DNA of 64,000 nucleotides from Mytilus californianus (GCF_021869535.1 NW_026262679.1:92839982-92903981); one strand, 5' to 3'; positions 15,780 to 52,620 are shown, numbered from the stretch's first letter. Numbers and translations: made by a program. The notes: generated by a model from the letters alone, not told the origin.

Positions 15780-16200
15780 ATTTTTAGCTCACCTGGCCTA
15801 AAAGGCCAAGTGAGCTTTACTCATCATCTCCTCTGAAACTACGGGGCCAAATTTAACCAAACTTGGCCACAATCATCATGAGGGTATCTAGTTTAAAAAA
15901 TGTGTCTGATGACCCTGCCTGCCAAACAACATGGCCGACATGGCTAAAAATAGAACATAGGGGTAAAATGCAGTTTTTGGCTTATATCTCTGAAACTAAA
16001 AGCAAATGAGGTAAAAATGTTTATCAGGTTTAGATCTATCTGCCCTGAAATTTTCAGACGAATCAGACAACCTGTTGTTTGGTTGCTGCCCCTGAATTGG
16101 TAATTTTAAGGAAATTTTGCAGTTTTTGGTTATTATCTTAAATATTATTATAGATAGAGATAAACTGTAAACAGCAATAATGTTCAGCAAAGTACGATCT
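15780..16200 (+). mobile_element. Repeat unit beginning with a 13-bp-stem hairpin 'tagctcacctggcc-taaaa-ggccaagtgagct' (15787-15818). A related copy in the same orientation lies at 18590-18960 ('gggccaaat..aaccaaacttggcc..atcat..agggtatct..gatgaccctgcc..acatggccg.catggctaaaaata').
   Basis: The two segments share a colinear set of motifs. The hairpin is read directly, with one mismatch in the stem. Confidence 0.5.
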
Positions 16201-16259
16201 ACAAATAAGTCAATATGACCAAAATTGTCAATTGACCCCTAAAGAAGTTATTGTCCTTT

Positions 16260-16323
16260 ATAGTCAATTTTTCGTAAATTTTTATACGACCGCAAAAAAA
16301 TTTTTGTGGTCGTATATTGGTAT

Positions 16324-16380
<57 letters not shown>

Positions 16381-18580
16381 CGGCGTCGTCCGAAGACACA
16401 TTGGTTTTCGCACTCTAACTTTAGTTTAAGTGAATGGATCTCTATGAAATTTTACCATAAGGTTCAATACCACAAAAGGAAGGTTGGGATTGATTTTGGG
16501 GGTTATGGTACCAACAGTAAAGGAATTAGGGGCCAAAAGGGGCCAAAAATAAGCATTTTTGTAACTTCCAGACATAACTTGTGTGTTAGTGTATGGATCT
16601 CTCTGACATTGTACCACAAGGTTCCATATCACAAAAGGAATGCTGGGATTGATTTTGGGGGTAATTGCCTCAAGATTTTAGGAATTAGGGGCCAAAAAAG
16701 GGGCAAAAAACAAGCATTTTTCTAGTTTCATGATAATAACTTGTGTGTAAGTGTATGGATCTTTCTGAATTTGTACTACAAGGTTCCATATCACAAAGGG
16801 AAAGCTGGAATTGAGTTTGGGGGTAATTGCCCAAAACGTTTAGGAATAAGGGGCCAAAAAGGGGCCAAAAATAAGCATTTTTCTAGTTTCCAGACAATAA
16901 CTTGTGTTAAAGTGTATGGATCTCTCTGAAATTGTACCACAAGGTTCCATATCACACAGGGAATGCTGGGATTGATTTTGGGGGTAATTGCCTCAAAATA
17001 TTAGGAATTAGGGGCCAAAAAAGGGGCAAAAAACAAGCATTTTTCTAGTTTCATGATAATAACTTGTGTGTAAGTGTATGGATCTTTCTGAAATTGTACT
17101 ACAAGGTTCCATATCACAAAGGGAAAGCTGGAATTGAGTTTGGGGGTAATTGCCCTAAATGTTTAGGAATTTGGGGCCAAAAAGGGGCCAAAAAACACAT
17201 TTTTTTTAGTTTCCAGACAATAACTTGTGTTCAAGTGTATGGATCTCTCTGAAATTGTACTGCAAGGTACCATACCACAAAGGGAAGGCTGGGATTGAGT
17301 TTGGGGGTGATGAATCATAAGAGAGTTCAAAAGATTTGGGGGGGGGGGATTTTTTTTTTTCCTTTTTTTTCTTTTTTTCCTTTTTTTTTTCTTTTAAAAT
17401 TTTCCATTTTAAGTTGGTTATTTCTGATTTATATTTAAAAGCAAATAATAATGATATGGTAGGAGATACACACCAAACAGGATGTGTAAATTTTTATATA
17501 ATAAGTATTGTGCAATAGCAAGAAATTTTCAATTGCACAGTATTGCACAATAGCAAGAAATCTTCAATTGCACAGTATTGCGCAATAGCAAGAAATCTTC
17601 AATTGCACAGTATTGCGCAATAGCAAGAAATATCCAATAGCACAATATTGCGCAATAGCAAGAAATTGTTAATTGTACAGTATTGCGCAATAGCAGGAAA
17701 TATTCAATTGCACAGTATTGTGCAAAAGAAGATACTTCGTATAAATTGCTTATTTCTTGACCAATTTCAATGGGGTTTTATTCTTGAATTCTTGGGGTTC
17801 TTTAATATGCTGAATCTAACCGTGTATTAAGTTTTTGGATTTTGGGCGCCGTTTTTAAATTGGTCCACATTGAGGTCCAAAGGGTCCAAAATTAAACTTT
17901 GTTTGATTTCATCAAAAATTAAATTATTGGGGTTCTTTGATATGCCGAATCTAACCGTGTATTTAGATTCTTAATTTTTGGTTCCGTTTTCAAATTGGGT
18001 CTACATTAAGGTCCAAAGGGTCCAAAATTAAACTTAGTTTGATTTTAACAAAAATTGAATTCCAGGGGTTCTTTGATATGCCGAATCTAAACATGTATTT
18101 AGATTTTTGATAATGGGCCCAGTTTTCAAGTTGGTCCAAATCGGGGTCCAAAATTAAACTTTGTTTGATTTCAACAAAAATTGAATATATGGGGTTCTTT
18201 GATATGCTGAATCTAACCATGTATTTAGATTTTTGATTTTTGGGCCCCGTTATCAACTTTGTCCACATTGAGGTCAAAAGGGTCCAATATTAAACTTTGT
18301 TTGATTTCATCAAAAATTGAATTCTTGGGGTTCTTTGATATGCTGAATCTAACCATGTATTTAGATTTTGGATATTGGACCATAATAGGTGAATGTCCAA
18401 TTTAAAATTTTTAAGTTCTTAGACCACATTCATTCTGTGTCAGAAACCTATGCTGTGTCAAATATTTAATCACAATCCAAATGCAAAGCTGTATCAAGCT
18501 TGAATGTTGTGTCCATACTTGCCCCAACTGTTCAGGGTTCGACCTCTGCGGTCGTATCAAGCTGCGCCCTGCGGAGCATT
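16260..18580 (+). mobile_element. Composite non-autonomous 'pearl'/Helentron-like element, copy A, laid out as follows:
- 5' hairpin 'tatacgaccgcaaaaaaatttttgtggtcgtata' (16283-16318)
- (GTC)19 (16324-16380)
- about 5.7 units of a roughly 160-bp tandem repeat (16400-17325)
- G/T homopolymer block (17334-17400)
- 7 units of a 32-bp repeat 'cacagtattgcgcaatagcaagaaatcttcaattg' (17500-17720)
- 5 units of a roughly 131-bp repeat (17760-18400)
- conserved 3' terminus '...ccccaactgttcagggttcgacctctgcggtcgtatcaagctgcgccctgcggagc' (18520-18578)
   Basis: All sub-arrays are read directly, with 161-bp spacing between 16741 and 17064 over two units. The 3' motif 'tgcggtcgtata' is the reverse complement of the 5' 'tatacgaccgca'. 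The same architecture recurs at 40226-44190. The ORFs at 16199-16399 (poly-Arg), 16232-16429 (poly-Ser), 16306-16725 (poly-Val), 16741-16929 and 17064-17252 are repeat artefacts. Confidence 0.7.
16324..16380. repeat. (GTC)n microsatellite, 19 units
   Basis: Read directly. Confidence 0.95.
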
Positions 18581-19554
18581 TTATTTAAATCTTTTACAAA
18601 AATCTTCTTCACTTAATCTACTGGGCCAAATAGAATTAAACTTTGCCACAATTTTCAATAGGGTATCTTGATTGCAAAATGTATCCGATGACCCTGCCAT
18701 CCAACTGACATGGCCGCCATGGCTAAAAATAAAATTTGGGGGTTCACTATAGAAGTCTAAGGGAAAATCAAAAAACAATTTCAAATGGTCTCAACTTGAA
18801 AACTAATTTAAATAATGATAAGGGGTCTTCAGTAACTATTGTAAGACTAAAATAGGATGACCTGCTTTTAAATTATTTAATTTAACTAATGGGCCAAATT
18901 AAACCAAACTTGGCCTCAATCATTATTAGGGTATCTAATACTGTTTATTATGATTTTAACCTAATTTTACATGATTTCCAATAACACAGTCGATACAGGT
19001 GAGCAACACAGGCTCTTGAGAGCCTCTAGTTTATGGTACACTTTGCAAATACATGTACTGGTAATAAAATTATGGTGGATATAATAATATATTTAACCAT
19101 AGATGCAAGGATAAGTTCTCCTAAATAGATGATAATGATTTTTTATTGAATATTTATATATATATAAGTGTTTGTTCTGGTGACAGTTTGCAAGTTCAAA
19201 TAAATGTGGGCCAAGATGAGAGTCTTTCATTTGACAGTGGTGAAACAGCACAACATAAGAACAAACTATAAAAATCAGTTGAAAAAAGCTTTAACTCATC
19301 AGATCAATACAAAGCAGGAAAACATCAAACAAAAACACAGACTGGACGTGGCAGGGTATTTATCCATCCCTCATCCCTAACAACAAAAAGACACCAAGTA
19401 CAGAAGTCAGTTTTGCTGATTCACTTGCAATAGAAAAACTCAAGTTTTGAAAAGATTCCAATAGACAACAACCCAACAACAAAATGAAACAAAAGAGATT
19501 ACTAGAGATCAGCATAGGGTCTTTAGTACCAGAAAAGTGTTCTAGTTCAGACTA

Positions 19555-28949: not shown

Positions 28950-29800
28950 GATACTATACTTCTTGAGATGCAATCTTTTATTAGTACCCTAGAAGGGGAC
29001 TTTAGGTTTTCACTCTGTCTGTCTGTCTGTCTGTTCATCCGTTAGTCCGGGAAATCAGTTTTCCACACTTTTTTTCTTCATGCTTGAATATATCGATTTG
29101 ATATTTGGTGTATTGTTTTATCATGACAAGTTACAGATCAAGTTCGAATTTTGTTCCGGTCTGATGATTTTGTGCAGAGTTATGGTTCTTTGACATAGAA
29201 AATTCACTAAAATAATCAGTTTTCTGCACTTTTTTTTGTCATTCTTGAAGATAATGATTTGATAATTGGTATATAGTTTTATCATGACAAGTTACAGTTC
29301 AAGTTGGAATTTTGTTCTGGTCAGATGATTGTGTGCAGAGTTAAGGTCCTTGGACTTAGAAAATTCACTCAAATAATCAGTTTTTCACACTTTTTTTCGT
29401 CATGCTTGAAGATATTGATTTGATGGACTTAGAAAATTCACTCAAATAATCAGTTTTTCGCACTTTTTTTCGTCATGCTTGAAGATATTGATTTGAAAAT
29501 TATTATATTGTTTTATCATGACAAGTTACAGATCAAGTTGGAATTTTGTTCTGGTCTGATGATTTTGTGCAGAGTAATGGTCCTTGGACTTAGAAAATTC
29601 ACTTAGATAATCAGTTTTCAACACTTTTTTTCGTCATGCTTGGAGATATTGACTTAATATTTGTTATATAATTTACACCATGACAAGTTATAGATCAAAT
29701 TAGAATTTTGTTCCAATACAATGAATTTTTAACCGATAGGGGACTATGTATTGCCATGCAATACTCACAGAATGCTTGATTTTATCTGGTATCTAAGAAT
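28950..29800 (+). mobile_element. Non-autonomous element with about 4.5 internal tandem units of about 185 bp ('cagttttccacactttttttcttcatgcttgaagatattgatttgat...gacaagttacagatcaagttcgaattttgttccggtctgatgattttgtgcagagttatggt'). It begins with a 'cccctagaaggggactttagg' hairpin and a (CTGT)5 tract, and ends '...aaccgataggggactatgtattgccatgcaatac'.
   Basis: The units are read directly. A second copy with about 2.5 units and the same terminal motifs lies at 44275-44830. Confidence 0.65.
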
Positions 29801-38552: not shown

Positions 38553-41493
38553 TACATGAATGCTTTGGGTTCTGAATCTTTGAAATTAAAACAAGTCATA
38601 TGATTCAAATTTTTCATATCATAAATGAAGAAAAAACAAGCCTTTACTTGAATAATTGAAACTACCTTAATTTAAAGTTGACATTGACAACTTGTCAGGA
38701 TTATTATATCTTGAGATTTTCATTTAGTAATAATATTATTATGTTGTTTTCATTTGTTTGATTATGTTCATTTATCAGCAATCTAATAATTTAAAACCGT
38801 CCATGGGATGAAAATTATGCCATGCAAACTGGAGTAGGTTTTTATTTCCCTAAAGTTGGTAGATAACAATATGTGAATTAAAAAACAACCATGACAAAAT
38901 GTTGCCTTGGATTTGTTTTGCTAGAGAATGTACTGCACTTTTGTTTGGCTATGCCTTTCTGATGTTTAATTGAAATTGAAATTTTATCTCTCATAAAAGC
39001 ATTATGACCTTGAGAAGTCCTTGATTCTATATTTGAAATAATAGTAGGAAATATTACTTACTTCAGGTGTTTTCATGCAAGTACATTTTTTAAGAATTGT
39101 TTTTCAAAATAATTTAAAGAAAAAACTATGTATAAGTTGTTTCAGATTTTTTTTTTCAAAATACAAATGCCAAACAGTTACTGTTCTTGAATTAAAAGGC
39201 ATTATTCTATGTTATTGAACAAAAAGGAAATGAGAAGTACAATAAGGGGTTCAACACTCCCAAAAGATATTTTGTTTTTTGTTTTATTTAATGTATTTAA
39301 TATGTCAAAAATTTGTTATCAACAGACTTGCCAAACACCAAGAGAGATGAATATTATTTGGAGGCAGAATTATAGTCAATTTTAGGTTTGAATTGAACAG
39401 TCGATTTGATTTGATGTAGTAAAATGTTCTCATACGGAGACAGTTGTAAGATACACAGAAATTACACCTGATAATCAAGCAAAACAAATATAAGTCATTG
39501 CAAATTTGTTTGTTAGTTTTTGATGAATTGAAATACATTTACAAGATTTTAACAGATGTTTTATGAAATGGCAGAGTTGTATTGTTAAACTTTTCTATTT
39601 TCTTGTAGATAGGGTAATGTAATCTTTTGTGTCCCATACTCCAGATGATTTCTTTGAGATTATTTTATTAATGTCATTATTCAAAAATGTTTTTCCATTG
39701 TATTTACACTTGAGAACAAATTATAAGGTAATTAAAAAGAATTCTATAGAAACAGATGAGGGGGTCTTAACATTTTAACATAAATATAATGTATAATGGA
39801 ATGAGAAATCAAATAATTTATCTCTAGTTCTGTTTAAAAACTTTAAACAAATATCCCAAAAATTTGAATCAGATGTACATGAGTAATTTTGAAAATTGAA
39901 TCCTCCTGAAACAAAACAACACAGAATGGATTGCTCTGTATTGGAGTTAGGGAACCAGTTTCTATGAAGGACTAGGGATTACATTGTCCTGTCTAATTGT
40001 AGATCAGAATTAATGGATGGTGTGTTAGATTGCTCAGTGCTGGCTATAGCAGCATACTTATTGTCACATTAAAATGTTCTGAGTATTAAATAAAGTATAA
40101 TAAATATATCGACAGTTCACTTTTATTTTTAATATCACTAAAAGGAGACATGGGGTAAATTTCAATGAGACAGCAACCCATGTATTTAAGTGAAACAAAA
40201 ATAAACATTTAGCGGTCATAATTTTTATACAACCGCAAAACAAACTTTTGTGTTCGTATAATGGTATCATGTCAGCGTCTTTGTCCGAAGACACATTTAG
40301 TTTCCGGTCAATAACTTTAGTTTAAATGAATGGATCTCTTATGAAATTTTACCAGAAGGTTCAATACCACAAAAGGAAGGTTGGGATTGATTTTGGGGGT
40401 TATGGTACCAATAGTTTTGGAATTAGGGGCCAAAAACAAGCATTTTTGTAGTTTCAGGACAATAACTTGTGTGTAAGTGTATGGATCTCTCTGAAATTGT
40501 ACCACAAGGTTCCATATCACAAAGGGAAGGCTTGGATTGAGTTTGGGGTAGTTGCCCCAAAAGTTCAGGAATTAGGGGCAAAAAAGGGGCCAAGAACAAG
40601 CATTTTTCTAGTTTCCAGACAATAACTTGTGTTTAAGTGTATGGATCTCTCTGAATTTGTAATACAAGGTTCCATACCTCAAAGGGAAGGCTGGGATTGA
40701 GTTTGGGGGTAATTACTCCAAGGAGGGGGTTCAAAAAGTTTGGAGGGGATTTTTTTTTCAAATTTAATTTGGGGTTTCATATTTTTTTCTTCGAGATTTT
40801 TCAAAATTTCAAATTTTGGGGGGGGGGGGGGGGGGGGGGGGGGGTGGATATTTATTTCATACTTTTTTTTTTTTTTCTAAAAATTTTCCATTTTTACATT
40901 GATTTATATATAAAAGCAGCAAATACTGATGTGGCAGGAGATACACACCAAACAGGGTGTGTAAATTATTATATATAACAGATTAACAGTATTCCGCAAT
41001 AACAAGAAATCTTCACTTGCATAGTATTGCGCAATAGCAAGAAATCTTCAATTGCATTGCACAGTATTGCGCAATAGCAAGAAATCTTCAATTGCACAGT
41101 ATTGCGCAATAGCAAGAAATCTTCTATTGCACAATAGCAAGAAATCTTCAATTGCACAGTAATGCACAATAGCAAGAAATCTTCAATTGCACAGTATTGC
41201 ACAATAGCACATTATTATACGACCGCAAACAATTTTTGAGGTTGTATATTGGTATGATGTTGGCGTCTTCGTTGTCGTCATCCGATGACACATTGGTTTT
41301 TGCACAATAACTTTAAGTGAATGGATCTCTATGAAATATTACCACAAGGTTCAATACAACAAAAGGAAGGTTGGGATTGATTTTGGGGGTTATGGTACCA
41401 ACAGTTAAGGAATTAGAGGCCAAAAATAAGCATTTTTCTAGTTTCCAGACAATAACTTGTGGAACAGTGTATGGATCTCTCTGAAATTATACC

Positions 41494-42693
41494 TTTTTTT
41501 CTTTTATTCTCATAAAGCCAATGCATTACATCAGTACAGAGATAACAACAATAACTATTTACAATATATACAAAACAAGGAGAGAGGTTACAGAAGTCAC
41601 TAGCCAGGAGGACAAACAAAAGTATTAACATTTTTTATAAATAAACAAAATTTCTTCAGGACTGGTTTTCGTGTACTCGACATAAGTTCCGAGAATTTAA
41701 ATGTATTATGTCGTTGTACAAAATAGGAGGATAAATACTCTGTACGTTTTTGGGCGAAAAAAGTACATTCAAATATATAGTGATATTCGTCACCAATTTG
41801 TCGATTGTTACATTGATGGCAAACACAGTTTTCTCTCAATATATTTTTCCTGTTTCAATCAGCAATTTGTTATTAGTTGTTCGAAATCGACAAAGAACAA
41901 CGGCATCTTTAAAGTCCAAAATATTAAAATATTCCTCAAATTCCCAGTTTTTCTTAAAAATTTTGTAGTTTATAGCTTTTGATGAATTTTGAATAAGGGA
42001 ATTCCAATTCTGAAGAAACTGGTCTAATAATCTTTGCTTTATAACAGTTTTTAACCAATCTTTATCTATAAAATTTTGTGTTTCCCATATATATGAGAAA
42101 CCACGATCTTGAAATATTTTTTTGACAAATAGAATCCATTTATTCTGCATGTTATAATGAGCATTCATATGGCGAGAAAGTTGATACAATATAAAGGAAA
42201 ACTTTGCTTGTTTGCCGGAAATCAAATTTGCCCAAAATAATACTGCTTGAACTTTTATATCTATGTCAACCGGATGGCGACCTAGTTCCCCGTAAACCAC
42301 ATAATTTGGTGTTGAGGATTTCAGATTTAAAAGTAATTTACAGAATTTTAAATGTATCTTTTCTAATACCTCATTATTACTAAAACCCCATACTTCGCAC
42401 CCATACAACAGAATGGGCTTGACAATTTTGTCAAAAAGATCTAGCTGACATTTTATGGAAAGCTGATACATCCTTCCCATTTTCAGGACTTCGTACATGG
42501 CTTTTAAGGCCGTATCGGATAAATGTTTTTTCGTCATATTAAAATTCCCTGTTTTAGTAAAAATAATTCCCAAATAGTTAAACTGCTTTACTATCTCAAT
42601 GTTAGTGTCATTGTAAGAAAATCTGAGATTTTTTGGCAAACGTCCAAAACCAAACACTAAAGCTTTGGTTTTGTCAACGTTTACTTTCAATTT
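41494..42693 (-). mobile_element. 5'-truncated non-LTR retrotransposon (LINE) inserted in the 160-bp repeat array. It retains the C-terminal RT (thumb) region and a CCHC-type zinc knuckle, and has a short poly(A) tail, seen as tttttttt at 41494-41500 on the + strand.
   Basis: The minus-strand ORFs at 41836-42759 and 41600-41839 carry RT-like C-terminal motifs. The tail 'CHQCNNRQIGDEYHYIFECTFF' fits the C-x2-C-x~12-H-x4-C pattern of CR1/L2/RTE-type LINE ORF2 ends. The 160-bp repeat 'ctctgaaattatacc' stops at the poly-T and resumes at 'accacaagtttgtataccacaaaggga' at 42694. The first 25 or so residues of the 307-aa ORF are repeat-derived read-through. Confidence 0.75.
41600..42680 (-). pseudogene. 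LINE ORF2 fragment (RT C-terminal part plus CCHC), 5'-truncated, with one frameshift between 41836 and 41839
   Basis: Two overlapping ORFs in different frames. There are no N-terminal RT motifs (Y/FxDD is not seen) and no endonuclease, so it is a dead copy. Confidence 0.7.
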
Positions 42694-42924
42694 CCAAACC
42701 ACAAGTTTGTATACCACAAAGGGATGGTTAGGATTTGCTTTGGGAGGGTTATGACTCAAACTGTTTAGGAATTAGGGGCAAAAAACGGGGAAAAACAAGG
42801 GTGTCCTGGTTAATGGACAAATACTTTAGTACAAAACATAATTTAAAGCAGTGTAAGGGAGGTAATTCAAATAATGGTTAATGAACAATTAAGACAATTT
42901 AAAAGCAGTGTAAGGGAGGTAATC

Positions 42925-42976
42925 CAAATACAGAGTTTTGATTACCTCCCTTACACTGCTTTTAAATTATGTTTAA
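42925..42976. repeat. Perfect 22-bp-stem hairpin 'gcagtgtaagggaggtaatccaaatacagagttttgattacctcccttacactgc'. A third direct copy of the arm lies at 42848-42869.
   Basis: Read directly. Confidence 0.8.
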
Positions 42977-44274
42977 AGAAATGCATATTTATAAAGGAAG
43001 ACCAGTAAAAATATCTGCAAATGTTGCATCTTTTTTTTTTACAAAAAAATCCATATGAAAGATTTTACACCATATTTTAAATTCTATTATAAAATAGATT
43101 AAGTTAGCACTATGGTAAATTTAAATGGGTAATTATGGTTGCAAACTCCAATGGAAATTTAAATTGAGATTATGACCATATCTTGAGGGAAAGAATTTTT
43201 TTGGGGGAAAAAAAGGGGGGGGGGGGGGTTAAAAAGAAATTGTGGGGGTCAATTTTTTCTCATTTCAGATTTCAGAAATTGAAAAGAAAAATTCTTCAAA
43301 TATTATTTTTTTGGCAAAAAAAAAAGTGTGTGGGAGGGGGAGGCTTAATATGCAATAGCATAGTGTATTACACAAAAGCAAAAAAAAAAGGGGGATAAAT
43401 TTTTTATTTATTTTTTGTGGGGGAGGGGGGGGGGGGTCAATTCGCAACAGCAGAGTGTATTGCATAAAAGCAAAAAATTGAATATAAATTCAAATCATAT
43501 AACTAATTCTAAGTTCTTTGACTACAGTTATTCTGTGTCAGAAACCTTTTATGTGTCAAATATTTAATTACAATCCAAATTCAGTCCTGCGTCAAGCGCG
43601 AATATTGCGTCCATTTTTGCCCCAACTGTTCAGGGTTGGACCTCTGTGGTCGTATCCAGCTGCGCTCGGCGAAGCAATTTATTGGGCAATAGCACAGTAT
43701 TGCGCAATATCACAGGATTGCTCAATAGCACAGTATTGTGCAATAGCAAGATATCTTCAATTGAAAATAAATACAAATCTTTTAACCAATTTCAATGGGA
43801 TTCATTTAAAGTCTTTAATTTTGGGGGGTTCTAACCTTGTATTACTATTTTGGATATTGGGCCCCATTTTAAAATTGGTCTACATTGAGATCCAACGGGT
43901 CCAAAATTAAACTTCAGTTGGTTTGATTTCATCAAAAACTGAATTATTGAGGCTCTGTGATATGCTGAATCTTATTGTGCATTTAGATTTTTTATTTTGG
44001 GCCCTGTTTTCACATAAGTCCATATTAAGGTTTGAAGGGTCCAAAATTAAACTTTGTTTGATTTCAACTAAAATAATTTTTGGTGTTTTTTTATGTGCTT
44101 GAATATTGTGTCCAAATTTGCCCCAACTGTTCAGGGTTCGACCTCTGCGGTCGTATCAGGCTGCGCTCAGCGAAGCATTTTATTGGAATTTGATGATATT
44201 TTTTTTCGTGAAGTAAGATTGAAAAAGAAAGGTGCATGAGACAACAATTAGATATAACAACAATTTCAAAGGAA

Positions 44275-44830
44275 TATCTCTTTTATTAGTCCCCTACTGA
44301 CGAAGTCGAAGGGGACTTTAGGTTTACACTCCGTCAGTCTGGCAAATCAGTTTTCCACACTCTTTTTCTTCGTGCTTGAAGATATTGATTTGATATTTGT
44401 TGCATTGTTTTATCATGACAAGTTACAGATCAAGTTTGAATTTTGTTCCAGTCTGACGATTTTGTGCAGAGTTATGGTCCTTGGACTTAAAAAAAATTCA
44501 CCCAAATAATCAGTTTTCCTCACTTTTTTTCTTCATGCTTGAAGATATTGATTTGATAATTGGTATAAAGTTTTATCATGACAAGTTACAGATCAAGTTC
44601 GAATTTTGTTCTGGTCTGATGATTTTGTGCAGAATTATGGTCCTTAGACTTAGAAAATTCACTCAAATAATCAATTTTCCACATTTTTTTTCGTCATGCT
44701 TGACTTGATACTTGTTATATAGTTTACACCATGACAAATTACCGATCAAGTTAGCATTTGGTTCCAGTACAATGAATTTTAAACCGAAAGGGGACTATGT
44801 ATTGCCAGGCAATACTCATAGAATGCTTAT
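44275..44830 (+). mobile_element. Second copy of the 185-bp-tandem element (see 28950-29800), with about 2.5 units. It begins with the 'cccctactgacgaagtcgaaggggactttagg' hairpin and ends '...aaaccgaaaggggactatgtattgccaggcaatac'.
   Basis: It aligns with 28950-29800 and lies immediately downstream of composite element B. The ORF at 44481-44708 is an artefact. Confidence 0.65.
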
Positions 44831-46899
44831 TACTATTTGTGTGTCCCAATTGATGAAGTAGTGGGAAAAAAAGAGGCAGAAGATAGATACCAATGAGACA
44901 ATCAAAAATCATAAATCCCAGAAATAAAAATAATACCATGGTAACGAAACGAAAAAAGACTAAAACCAAACAGTTTACAAAACCCTAAGAGAGACAAAGG
45001 CATGCTGAAATTGTCAGTGTCAGAGATGTCAACTATTGTTAAGTTAGTGATAAGGTCACTTTTAGGTGAACCACCAAGTCAATGATATTGTGTATGCAGT
45101 TGTATTAGCATCGGCACATGTCTCATTTCCATGAAGATAATTGCCATCCATTGACTTTAAAACTTTTGCAAAGTTTACATGTTCAAGGTTGTAACTAGTT
45201 CAGTGTAAGCAAAACTACTAATGGTAAGTCAATAATTTATTGGTATGCATTTGTATAAGCGTTGATACATATCAATTCCATGGAGATAATCTGGCCCTTC
45301 CCCTGAGTTGTAGTCCATTGACATTGCTTAATTTCCATGTTGAATGTTGCCCTGTTATTGTAACATTTTCATCATACTTCCAAATTATACACAAGAACAT
45401 CACTGTACCATCACTTTATGTATGGTCTTTAGTGATGAACAAAAATGTCACATCTGACACCTGGAAAAAGACAACCTCTTGCATAAGGAAAATACCCATC
45501 ATACAAAAAATAATATGTATTGCTATGGATTATTGCTGATGGTCTTGCGATATTTTTCTGATTTGAAATTATCTGTAAACTGCATTGAGCTATGTTCTGA
45601 ACTAATTAACTTACAGATTATAGAAGTTGAATTGAATCGGTAAGAAATATTTGTCAGTGAACGTTACACAATTACTAAAGACAATCGTAGATTCGATCCT
45701 GGCAATTGATCTGATTCTGTATTATAATATTTGCTACTCAATGTTAAGCAACCAAATATTAACCGTGGATTCCAGTCATGACTCAAAAATAGAAAAAAAG
45801 GAAGATTAGGAAAAAGTTAACATTCTCCTTTTAGGTGTAAAAGTCAGAAATCGTCAAACCTGAAAAGAACACTTCGTATGTGGACAGTCCAAAACTTAAG
45901 GCTGGAACCCTTGAATAAACTAGCATCAAGGAAACTATTTGACTGAAACTGTGTTTGCAGGGGAAACACTGCTTTGTATTAGAACTACACACTGATTCTT
46001 AACCTGCTAAATCAATAGATGAAATTCCATAGTGCCTCCTTTTCAACACATTTCATTTTATTTTTCTAGTCTCGCACTTCCGAAGCATTGGTATCATTAA
46101 CGGTTTTGATGGGAGTTAACATATAGTCAAAAGTTTTTTAAATATTCGCTGTGATCGTCTCTTCTTTGTCTGTACACCTGTCTCGTCTGTGCTTCGGCCT
46201 CTTGCTTTTCATTTTTATATTTTTGCTGTGTGAATACCCAAAATCCTTGAGAAAAATATAAACTTTGTGCACAATTCTATTATTCACTAAAGATTCTGTA
46301 ATGTATCACTTGAGAAATAGTTATAGTTGGTTACAAAATGCGAATTGCTATTCGATTCTAGAGGTAATGCAAAATACATGTCTTGTCCATGGGACACTAC
46401 AAAAATCATTTAGATCAGAAAACAGAATTTGATGAACACAATAAAATTATGCAGAGAAATCTGTGAAGTATCATTGAAATTCAGAATAGAGTTGAGGATC
46501 CAAGTGAACAACATTAATTTGACTGCATCAGATGCGCATTTCGACTATTAATCTCTCTTCAGTGGTGCTAGTGGCCAAAATGTTTGAAAATAATCCAAAA
46601 CATAATACAAACAAACAAAAAGTGAAGTCTTAAAAAAACAATACCACGATTCTATATACTAGTATTTGTCATATAATTGTTACCTTAGCTTGTTTGCGTT
46701 TCGGGTTTTTTATTTTGCTATTTGCTGTTCGTCCTTCAAAGTTACGTTGCGCATTGTAAATATCATATCTGGATTGATCCATTTGTTGAAAAGTAACAAA
46801 GGATTAGCAATTGCTGTTGAATCTCTTCACAGCTTGTATACATTTGATATATGCACTTATTTGTATATAATTGATAAATTATTAAGAAACTAAGGTTCC

Positions 46900-52017: not shown

Positions 52018-52620
52018 TTAAATCAGATGGTCTTGTGAATCTGTCCATTTAAAATCAATATCGTCAATAAATCGAAACCATGATAATGGCTGGTATGGAG
52101 CACTATCCAAGAGGCGTTTCAGAAGTGTAACAAGGCACTCAGTTGGAGGATTTTTGTCACTAAGAGTGTTCCATACCTCTTCACACGCCGCTATTCCTTC
52201 GTCTTGTGGAATGTTGGTATATAAAGAAGACACGTCCATGGATGCTAGTATGGTATTGTTTGGTAGAGGATTAAGGCTTTCTATTTTCTTTAAATAATCA
52301 GTCGTATCTTGAATGTAAGAGGGTAGTTCTTTAACATGCGGTCTTAAGTGATGGTCTACGGATAATTTTTCAGTTGGGTGACTATTCGCTGAAACAGTAG
52401 GTCGACCTGGATTGCCAGTTTTGTGTATTTTAGGCAACATATAGAATCTTCCAGCCTTTGCTTCGTTCACAAGAGGTCGACGATATTCAAAGGTGTCATT
52501 ATCGATATGCTTTTGGTCGTACATCTCTTGAAGGGTGGTGTTGATCTTTCGAATGGTAGTTTGTGTTGGATCTGTGGTTAATTGCTTGTAAAATTGGAGT
52601 TTGACAGTTGACGATTCCAC
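52018..52620 (-). pseudogene. RT domain fragment of the PLE (motifs 1, 2, A and C)
   Basis: The 200-aa ORF carries 'LPKIHK', 'RPTVS', 'DVSSLYTNIP' and 'FIDDI'. There are only about 45 residues between motif A and motif C, so motif B is deleted. The upstream continuation is in another frame. Confidence 0.7.

Follow-up and report, generated by a model that had tools for sequence, protein, structure and literature searches.

A probable three-layer transposon nest of two HINEs of one family and a 5′-truncated LINE in the genome of Mytilus californianus

A stretch of 64,000 nucleotides from Mytilus californianus (GCF_021869535.1 NW_026262679.1:92839982-92903981; hereafter, the window) was analyzed, and its region 40226-44184 was found to be, very probably, a transposon nest of three layers: an outer Helentron-associated interspersed element (HINE), an inner HINE of the same family and, within the inner one, a 5′-truncated long interspersed nuclear element (LINE). 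An earlier note, made from the sequence, had described this region as copy B of a composite element, with its two elements arranged either in tandem or as a nest, and had proposed that a LINE splits one of its arrays. The composite element, which was not recognized as a HINE at that time, also occurs in the window as an intact copy (copy A), and this served as the reference for reading the nest. The coordinates of the layers and of their parts are collected in Table 1.

Copy A (16200-18700) was compared with 40100-44300 by blastn. As the earlier note had held, the block order of copy A was found to be repeated (high-scoring segment pairs [HSPs] down to E = 2e-156), with two 5′ hairpins (40226 and 41216) and two 3′ terminus motifs (43639 and 44140). 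The matches to copy A were arranged as follows: (i) 40220-41209 corresponded to the 5′ hairpin, 161-bp array, G/T-rich spacer, and 35-bp array; (ii) 41211-41493 corresponded once more to the 5′ hairpin and 161-bp array; (iii) 42698-42799 was further 161-bp monomer sequence; (iv) 43507-43683 corresponded to the 3′ flank; and (v) 43687-44184 corresponded to the 35-bp array, the 136-bp array, and the 3′ flank. The ends are thereby ordered 5′, 5′, 3′, 3′, the 35-bp array of the outer element is split, and the 136-bp array and 3′ tail of the outer element appear only past the 3′ terminus of the inner one. Because of this order of the ends and the split in the 35-bp array, the two elements are nested and not tandem: the outer element breaks off at about 41210-41215 and resumes at 43684, after a complete inner element in the same orientation. 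Of the two arrangements offered earlier, only the second was therefore upheld.

Excision of the inner element in silico further illustrated this arrangement. When 41216-43682 was removed, a 1,492-bp element was obtained that aligned with copy A in a single HSP spanning the junction (rejoined positions 640-1406 versus copy A 17381-18081), with the colinearity across the junction falling inside the 35-bp array. At the rejoined site, the sequence is CACAtTAT/TGgGCAATAGCACAG, where the slash marks the junction, and the 18-nt sub-repeat of the array is CACAGTATTGCGCAATAGCACAG. The insertion site can be read as lying between two T's (T^T), with neither duplication nor loss of target, such that a regular 18-mer is restored. 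All five flanks seen are T-rich, and the T-strings leave each boundary ambiguous by about 5 nt.

An origin of the pair as tandem copies, or by local duplication or unequal crossover of a single element, was considered at this point and is scarcely credible. Both copies have the same orientation, and tandem copies are known for Helitron-type elements (introduction of PMC7492417); however, a tandem pair would read 5′..3′ 5′..3′ and not in the order observed with its split 35-bp array, the left flank and first monomer shared by the outer and inner elements are only about 80-82% identical, which argues against a recent duplication, and a left flank located inside a 35-bp array would be out of reach of homologous crossover. 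The tandem reading was thus rejected, as both the block order and the rejoined HSP contradict it. A misjoining during assembly of same-family repeats from different loci might be suspected in a region built of high-copy repeats, but this too is extremely improbable, since all of the junctions lie exactly at an element terminus or restore a regular unit, which a mis-join inside a shared repeat would not do.

By its anatomy, the composite element is classed as a HINE, a presumptive non-autonomous Helentron, with the published layout of such elements matched feature for feature. At the left end, the 5′ motif TATACGACCGCAAA and a nearby complement were located at 16283/16303, 40226/40247, and 41216/41235; 10 matches to this motif, including its own complements, were detected compared with 3.2 expected, a count not attained in any of 100 shuffles. 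All three copies have a short T-string at their 5′ end. The 11-nt 5′ repeat (T)ATACGACCGCA is the reverse complement of the 3′ repeat TGCGGTCGTAT(C), at 11 of 12 positions in copy A and 10 of 12 in each of the two B copies, such that the two form subterminal inverted repeats (subTIRs). The 5′ hairpin is formed with a second complementary copy that follows the 5′ repeat after 7-9 nt, and its DNA folds were calculated at −12.8 kcal/mol in copy A (z = −6.1), −7.7 kcal/mol in the inner element (z = −4.9), and −5.3 kcal/mol in the outer element (z = −1.5, decayed). The left flank further includes a microsatellite, seen as (GTC)22 in copy A and as a GTC run in an independent copy on a separate contig (L020, see below). 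Tandem arrays follow in fixed orientation, with the 161-bp array found in all three copies and the 35-bp and 136-bp arrays in copy A and the outer element. At the right end, an 18-nt motif, GACCTCTG(C/T)GGTCGTATC, was identified at 18541-18558 (copy A), 43639-43656 (inner), and 44140-44157 (outer); searched as GACCTCTGCGGTCGTATC, the 3′ motif gave three matches compared with 0.01 expected from shuffles. The 3′ repeat is followed in all three copies by a conserved interrupted palindrome, GCT.GCG(3 nt)CGC.AGC, which stops 8 nt before the common end ..GCA(T/A)TTTATT; its stem is short (6 bp) and the z-scores of its fold are modest (−1.7 to −3.0). When examined for coding capacity, the HINE was found to have only short, repeat-derived open reading frames (ORFs), none of which matched a protein family, and the sole real coding remnant within the element is the inserted LINE. 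The three copies were assigned, on sequence comparison, to one family and subfamily by the rule of Thomas et al. 2014 (PMC4067079), because they have the same 11-nt subTIR and are 88.3, 93.3, and 90.0% identical in pairwise comparison over the last 60 nt (that is, 88-93%). The 5′ subTIR TATACGACCGC is identical in copy A and the inner element, and has one substitution in the outer element.

The third layer, 41494-42696, is a 5′-truncated, dead-on-arrival LINE in opposite orientation to the HINEs. Two minus-strand ORFs were found at this location, of 307 codons (41836-42759) and then 79 codons (41600-41839), which together had 562 relatives among reverse transcriptases (RTs), the best at E = 2e-145 and 75% identity. 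The fragment covers the C-terminal part of the RT, from just after the YADD box to a CCHC motif, and continues into a 3′ untranslated region of about 100 nt with an AATAAA signal and a short A-rich tail. In many of the relatives, PF00078 and a YADD box lie upstream of the region that corresponds to this fragment; the fragment itself had no match in Pfam because this RT core is missing. An exact look-up of the LINE ORF in the contig collection returned no record. The frame is mostly open: its 386 codons are free of stops and are disturbed by one small out-of-frame deletion near 41838. Nonetheless, with this deletion and with all of the sequence upstream of RT motif 6 missing, the copy was never autonomous.

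Both edges of the LINE were resolved closely, and the earlier note, which had it span 41494-42693 on the minus strand with a poly(A) junction to the array, was correct as to strand, split, and junction but not as to the 5′ end, which is moved to 42696-42700. In an alignment with five relatives, protein homology was found to start exactly at W22 (WKLKVNVDKTK) of the 307-codon frame, corresponding to codon 42694-42696; the five relatives run on upstream through the YADD box, while the 21 upstream codons of the window are unrelated to them. Similarly, a related LINE at locus L017, with 71% DNA identity, aligns over 41503-42696 and its alignment ends there though it extends further 5′. The halt of homology at the junction implies that the 21 extra codons are read-through and not part of a chimera; a chimeric ORF was rejected as the protein homology begins only at W22, and no LINE sequence extends into the repeat. 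At the other edge, the 3′ end of the LINE (minus strand, ..GAGAATAAAAGAAAAAAA) abuts the monomer at 41493/41494, with the A-rich tail at this junction reading ..AATAAAAGAAAAAAA on the minus strand. Of the two flanks of the LINE, the one that ends at 41492 aligns with monomer positions 1-40, and the one that starts at 42698 with positions 39-139. When 41494-42700 is removed, the monomer reads ..GAAATTaTACC/ACAAG.. compared with the consensus ..GAAATTGTACCACAAG.., and, in agreement with the earlier expectation, the two halves join into a normal unit. The LINE thus entered at position 41 of the second 161-bp monomer of the inner copy, with no loss of target. Of the leftover junction nucleotides AACC (42697-42700), ACC (42698-42700) repeats the ACC at 41491-41493. 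The retention of the C-terminal RT region, the AATAAA signal and A-rich tail at the junction, the truncation inside the RT domain, and the precise interruption of the target are all like other 5′-truncated LINEs.

A number of points weigh against the nest as reconstructed here, or against one of its parts. A target-site duplication had been sought for the LINE on the suggestion of the earlier note, and the only candidate is the ACC repeat, of at most 3 bp; a 3-nt repeat is often expected by chance, and this one is not significant on its own. By comparison, the target-site duplications of L1 are 7-20 bp, much longer than the 0-3 bp seen here. At the boundaries of the inner element, the ends can be fixed only to about 5 nt because both the termini and the target are T-rich; if TTATT is assigned wholly to the element, the rejoined unit becomes irregular, at 11 nt compared with 18 nt. 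The contiguity of 41216-43683 is taken from the assembly. Regarding the HINE anatomy, the GTC microsatellite is reduced to degenerate remnants in both B copies, and a distance of only 28 nt separates the 3′ subTIR from the 3′ end, compared with 38-60 nt in the mite families of HINEs (PMC4067079). The link to a Helentron transposase would follow from anatomy. Finally, the internal region of the inner element (42835-43444) had no match in the other sequences searched, and further unrecognized insertions may lie there; low-stringency alignment of 42800-43510 with the other copies returned only low-complexity matches and one weak match to the last 35-bp unit.

Comparison of the 161-bp monomers, which had been proposed earlier as a gauge of divergence within and between copies, revealed a dependence on position. 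The first monomers of copy A, the outer, and the inner element (A1, Bo1, and Bi1, respectively) are 85-87% identical mutually and 70-82% identical to the internal monomers of their own arrays, while identity among the internal monomers is 85-95%, whether they come from one copy or from different copies. In addition, copy A displays a two-monomer higher-order pattern (A2-A4, 95%; A3-A5, 93%), which fits the 323-bp period detected by Tandem Repeats Finder. The interrupted monomer, Bi2, is the most divergent (66-78% identical to others). Monomer identity, as judged from these alignments, tracks position in the element and not locus, and such position-specific monomers indicate that the arrays were inherited from master copies and traveled with the element instead of being homogenized locally.

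The nesting sets a relative chronology, with no absolute date. It is certain that the outer element was in place before the inner one entered, and that the inner 161-bp array existed before the LINE split it; the earlier claim of an array formed first and a LINE inserted later thus holds, while the description of the LINE as 'dated' applies to its relative order and not to an absolute age. The 5′ hairpin and microsatellite are best preserved in copy A, then in the inner and then in the outer element, an order that agrees with the outer element being older than the inner. The simpler sequence of events is outer element, then inner element, then LINE. Alternatively, the LINE might already have resided in the inner element at a previous site and been carried along into the outer copy. 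The nesting fixes only outer before inner and array before LINE, and the mostly open frame of the LINE makes its age neither clearly young nor old, both of which leave room for this alternative; nonetheless, it is improbable, as a 1.2-kb passenger is an extra assumption and no second copy of the LINE or of the inner internal region was detected in the window or in the fetched loci.

In the simpler order, a HINE of the copy A family first occupied what is now 40226-41215 and 43684-44184. An inner HINE (about 41216-43683) then entered a T-rich point of the 35/18-bp array of this first layer, and a LINE was finally reverse transcribed into a monomer of the second layer in opposite orientation. 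The mechanism is modeled on the families concerned. As the HINEs are without genes, their movement would depend on a Helentron Rep/helicase/endonuclease protein supplied in trans from another locus; by analogy, this protein would recognize the subterminal repeat of the 5′ end, and that of the 3′ end with its palindrome, and would insert the element in T-rich DNA (TT) without duplication of the target. The entry of the LINE would correspond to a target-primed reverse transcription that stopped early.

A structurally reduced variant of the family is seen in the inner copy: past its 5′ end it has two monomers and then 42835-43444, after which a remnant of one 35-bp unit precedes the 3′ flank, and the 136-bp array is missing. 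Within it, 42834-42974 includes a unit of about 40 nt (..TTTAAAGCAGTGTAAGGGAGGTAAT..) in two direct copies and one inverted copy, and is predicted to fold as RNA at −57 kcal/mol (z = −9.6); this unit could be a small foldback element or part of the subfamily. An Rfam scan of 39800-45000 returned only a sub-threshold match of this segment to MIR408, a plant miRNA (30 bits compared with a gathering score of 64 bits), which was dismissed as an artefact of a generic hairpin.

Partial copies of the family on unrelated short contigs (L016 and L020 to L022) were examined for the arrangement of these modules. When the translated HINE array was used as a protein query, five short ORFs on short contigs were recovered that led to three partial copies. 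In L020 (2795-3616), the 5′ end and 161-bp array are followed directly by the 136-bp array, and in L022 (1-718) the 161-bp array likewise adjoins the 136-bp array, with both the G/T-rich spacer and the 35-bp array absent from the junction; the 161-bp monomers of these two copies all resemble the first-monomer type of the window. In L021, by comparison, the 161-bp array is followed by the G/T-rich spacer. The family is considered modular because these independent copies combine the arrays differently. A metagenome scan with the 18-nt 3′ motif returned 16 loci, of which 15 were GC-rich (49-70% G+C) and had no other similarity to the element; as nothing but the 3′ motif was alike, these were taken as chance matches, probably microbial. 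A real 3′ end of the family was found in L016 (1.1 kb). No copy of the family was detected in L017 or L018 (ENA) or in L019 (Mytilus edulis). After a self-insertion such as that described here, the transposase could act on the outer 5′ end together with the inner 3′ end, or on the inner 5′ end together with the outer 3′ end, to generate chimeric elements in which arrays are duplicated or re-ordered. This end swapping is a speculative and rather unlikely proposal; if true, the nest would be a snapshot of a family making new module combinations, and the process could explain the direct joins of 161-bp and 136-bp arrays in L020 and L022 as opposed to the spacer and 35-bp array in copy A and the outer element.

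The family was also compared with known systems. The HINE layout is known in mites, mosquitoes, and Drosophila (DINE-1) (Thomas, Vadnagara and Pritham 2014, PMC4067079), and, in the bivalves, the Cg_HINEs of the oyster Crassostrea gigas were described in 2020 (PMC7492417). In these two reports, GTC-type microsatellites, boundary T-strings, and preferential insertion at T-rich or TT sites without duplication of the target are recorded for HINEs. With DINE-1 and the HINEs of mites and mosquitoes, the mussel family shares subTIRs, an inverted repeat beside the 5′ subTIR, a microsatellite, central repeats, a 3′ stem-loop, and boundary T-strings, and those elements have a TT insertion preference; their subTIR is 12-15 nt, compared with 11 nt in the mussel family (PMC4067079). 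The likeness to Cg_HINE includes (i) a left flank with a 5′ subTIR, complementary repeat, and GTC-type microsatellite; (ii) central repeats of about 160 bp, always in one orientation, with some oyster elements carrying two different arrays consecutively; (iii) a right flank with a 3′ subTIR and then a palindrome; and (iv) T-rich sites, an apparent lack of target duplication, and insertions into other repeats. The two differ in that the host here is a mytilid mussel, likened by layout and not by sequence, and in that the mussel family has three arrays (161, 35, and 136 bp) and a G/T-rich spacer. Self-nesting is not described in the searched passages of the oyster report, and the word 'nested' is absent from its text (PMC7492417). 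Further likeness was noted to pearl (CvA, CvE, and CvG of Crassostrea virginica), DTC84 (Donax trunculus), and MgE (Mytilus galloprovincialis) (Gaffney 2003; Satovic and Plohl 2013, PMC3879986; Kourtidis 2006), which are modular and resemble miniature inverted-repeat transposable elements, with a flank L, up to about six core repeats of about 160 bp, a microsatellite, and a flank R with inverted motifs. Mytilus, the genus of the host, is also the source of MgE, and the family may be already described under that name; the comparison was by description, and MgE is reported to have no microsatellite, whereas copy A has (GTC)22. A full-text literature search for the subTIR strings returned unrelated primer sequences only, and the primers of the BIV160 satellite had no match in the window at up to 6 mismatches.

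In one respect this is an ordinary repeat pile-up that matters little beyond annotation. In another, it is a clean, internally controlled example of a HINE inserted into a HINE of its own family and of a LINE splitting a monomer without loss of target, in which the insertion site of the family could be reconstructed from a periodic array. For annotators, such regions should be called nested HINE and LINE and not satellite DNA or a gene, as the 307-codon frame is 21 read-through codons plus a dead LINE.

Table 1. Features of the nested region and of the reference copy, with positions counted from the first nucleotide of the window
Feature	Position	Strand	Method
T-string, may belong to the outer HINE	40221-40225		
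Outer HINE, 5′ subterminal inverted repeat TATACAACCGC and nearby complement GTGTTCGTATA (decayed 5′ hairpin)	40226-40260	+	Motif search, DNA fold
Outer HINE, 161-bp array, 2.6 monomers (Bo1, Bo2, partial Bo3)	40312-40714	+	
Outer HINE, G-run/T-run low-complexity and unique spacer, colinear with copy A 17309-17503	40715-40985	+	
Outer HINE, 35-bp array (18-bp sub-period), left part, cut by the inner HINE; junction within 41210-41215	40986-41215	+	
Inner HINE, 5′ subTIR TATACGACCGC and complementary repeat GAGGTTGTATA (5′ hairpin)	41216-41248	+	Motif search, DNA fold
Inner HINE, degenerate remnant of GTC-type microsatellite	41255-41290	+	
Inner HINE, 161-bp array: monomer Bi1 (41303-41452) and first 41 nt of Bi2 (41453-41493)	41303-41493	+	
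5′-truncated LINE fragment, C-terminal part of RT ORF	41494-42696	-	
Junction nucleotides AACC	42697-42700		
Inner HINE, rest of interrupted monomer Bi2	42701-42834	+	
Inner HINE, internal region, G/T-rich low complexity, without 35-bp or 136-bp array	42835-43444	+	
Inner HINE, right flank: vestige of one 35-bp unit, 3′ subTIR TGTGGTCGTAT (43645-43655), palindrome GCT.GCG...CGC.AGC (43659-43675), end ..GCAATTTATT	43445-43683	+	
Outer HINE, 35/18-bp array, resumed	43684-43763	+	
Outer HINE, 136-bp array, about 2.3 diverged units	43780-44104	+	
Outer HINE, right flank: 3′ subTIR TGCGGTCGTAT (44146-44156), palindrome (44160-44176), end ..GCATTTTATT	44105-44184	+	
Copy A, intact reference copy: 5′ hairpin, (GTC)22, 161-bp array x5.6, G/T-rich spacer, 35-bp array x6.6, 136-bp array x4.5, 3′ flank	16283-18585	+	

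The surroundings of the nest are likewise repetitive. The window is AT-rich (about 32% G+C) and includes only five ORFs of at least 130 codons, all of which are derived from repeats or transposons, with no long genes; no Rep/helicase ORF was found in the window, and a tRNA scan of 39800-45000 returned none. A Mytilus edulis contig matches the window repeats at up to 92% identity, and one of the RT relatives of the LINE is named a Mytilus edulis protein by its source. At least two further HINE-like families were detected in the window and, on the evidence of this one window, the mussel genome is rich in HINE-like elements. The second family, at 28975-29775 and 44285-44830, displays a 5′ hairpin TTAGT(A/C)CCCT..AGGGGACT, a (GTCT)n microsatellite, an array of 161-163 bp (at 29053-29652 in one copy and 44345-44703 in the other), and a 3′ AGGGGACTA repeat with the palindrome GTATTGCCATGCAATAC after it. 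Its copy at 44285 begins only 100 bp past the end of the outer element, and related sequence was found in the Mytilus edulis locus L019 (11669-11854). In the third family, at 1-1730, the 5′ inverted repeat GTCGAGCCTGCGAC..GTCGCAG..GCTCGAC was noted at about 487-525 and a (GGC)n run at 538-565; 147-bp arrays occupy 7-356 and 833-1610, and the 3′ segment ..GGCGAGACATTTCAGCGTGTGCACT is shared between two places, about 432-456 and about 1697-1721.

Two minor observations concern other retroelement sequences. A 390-residue LINE protein (P0002) occurs twice, about 15 kb apart, at L017 and L018 on the 470-kb contig ctg47922 (ENA ERZ26273167), with the same neighboring called genes at both loci, and the pair suggests a segmental duplication in the source genome of ERZ26273167. 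Within the window, a 200-codon ORF on the minus strand at 52018-52620 has an RT-like appearance (..SWFRFIDDIDF..) and is presumably another retroelement fragment.

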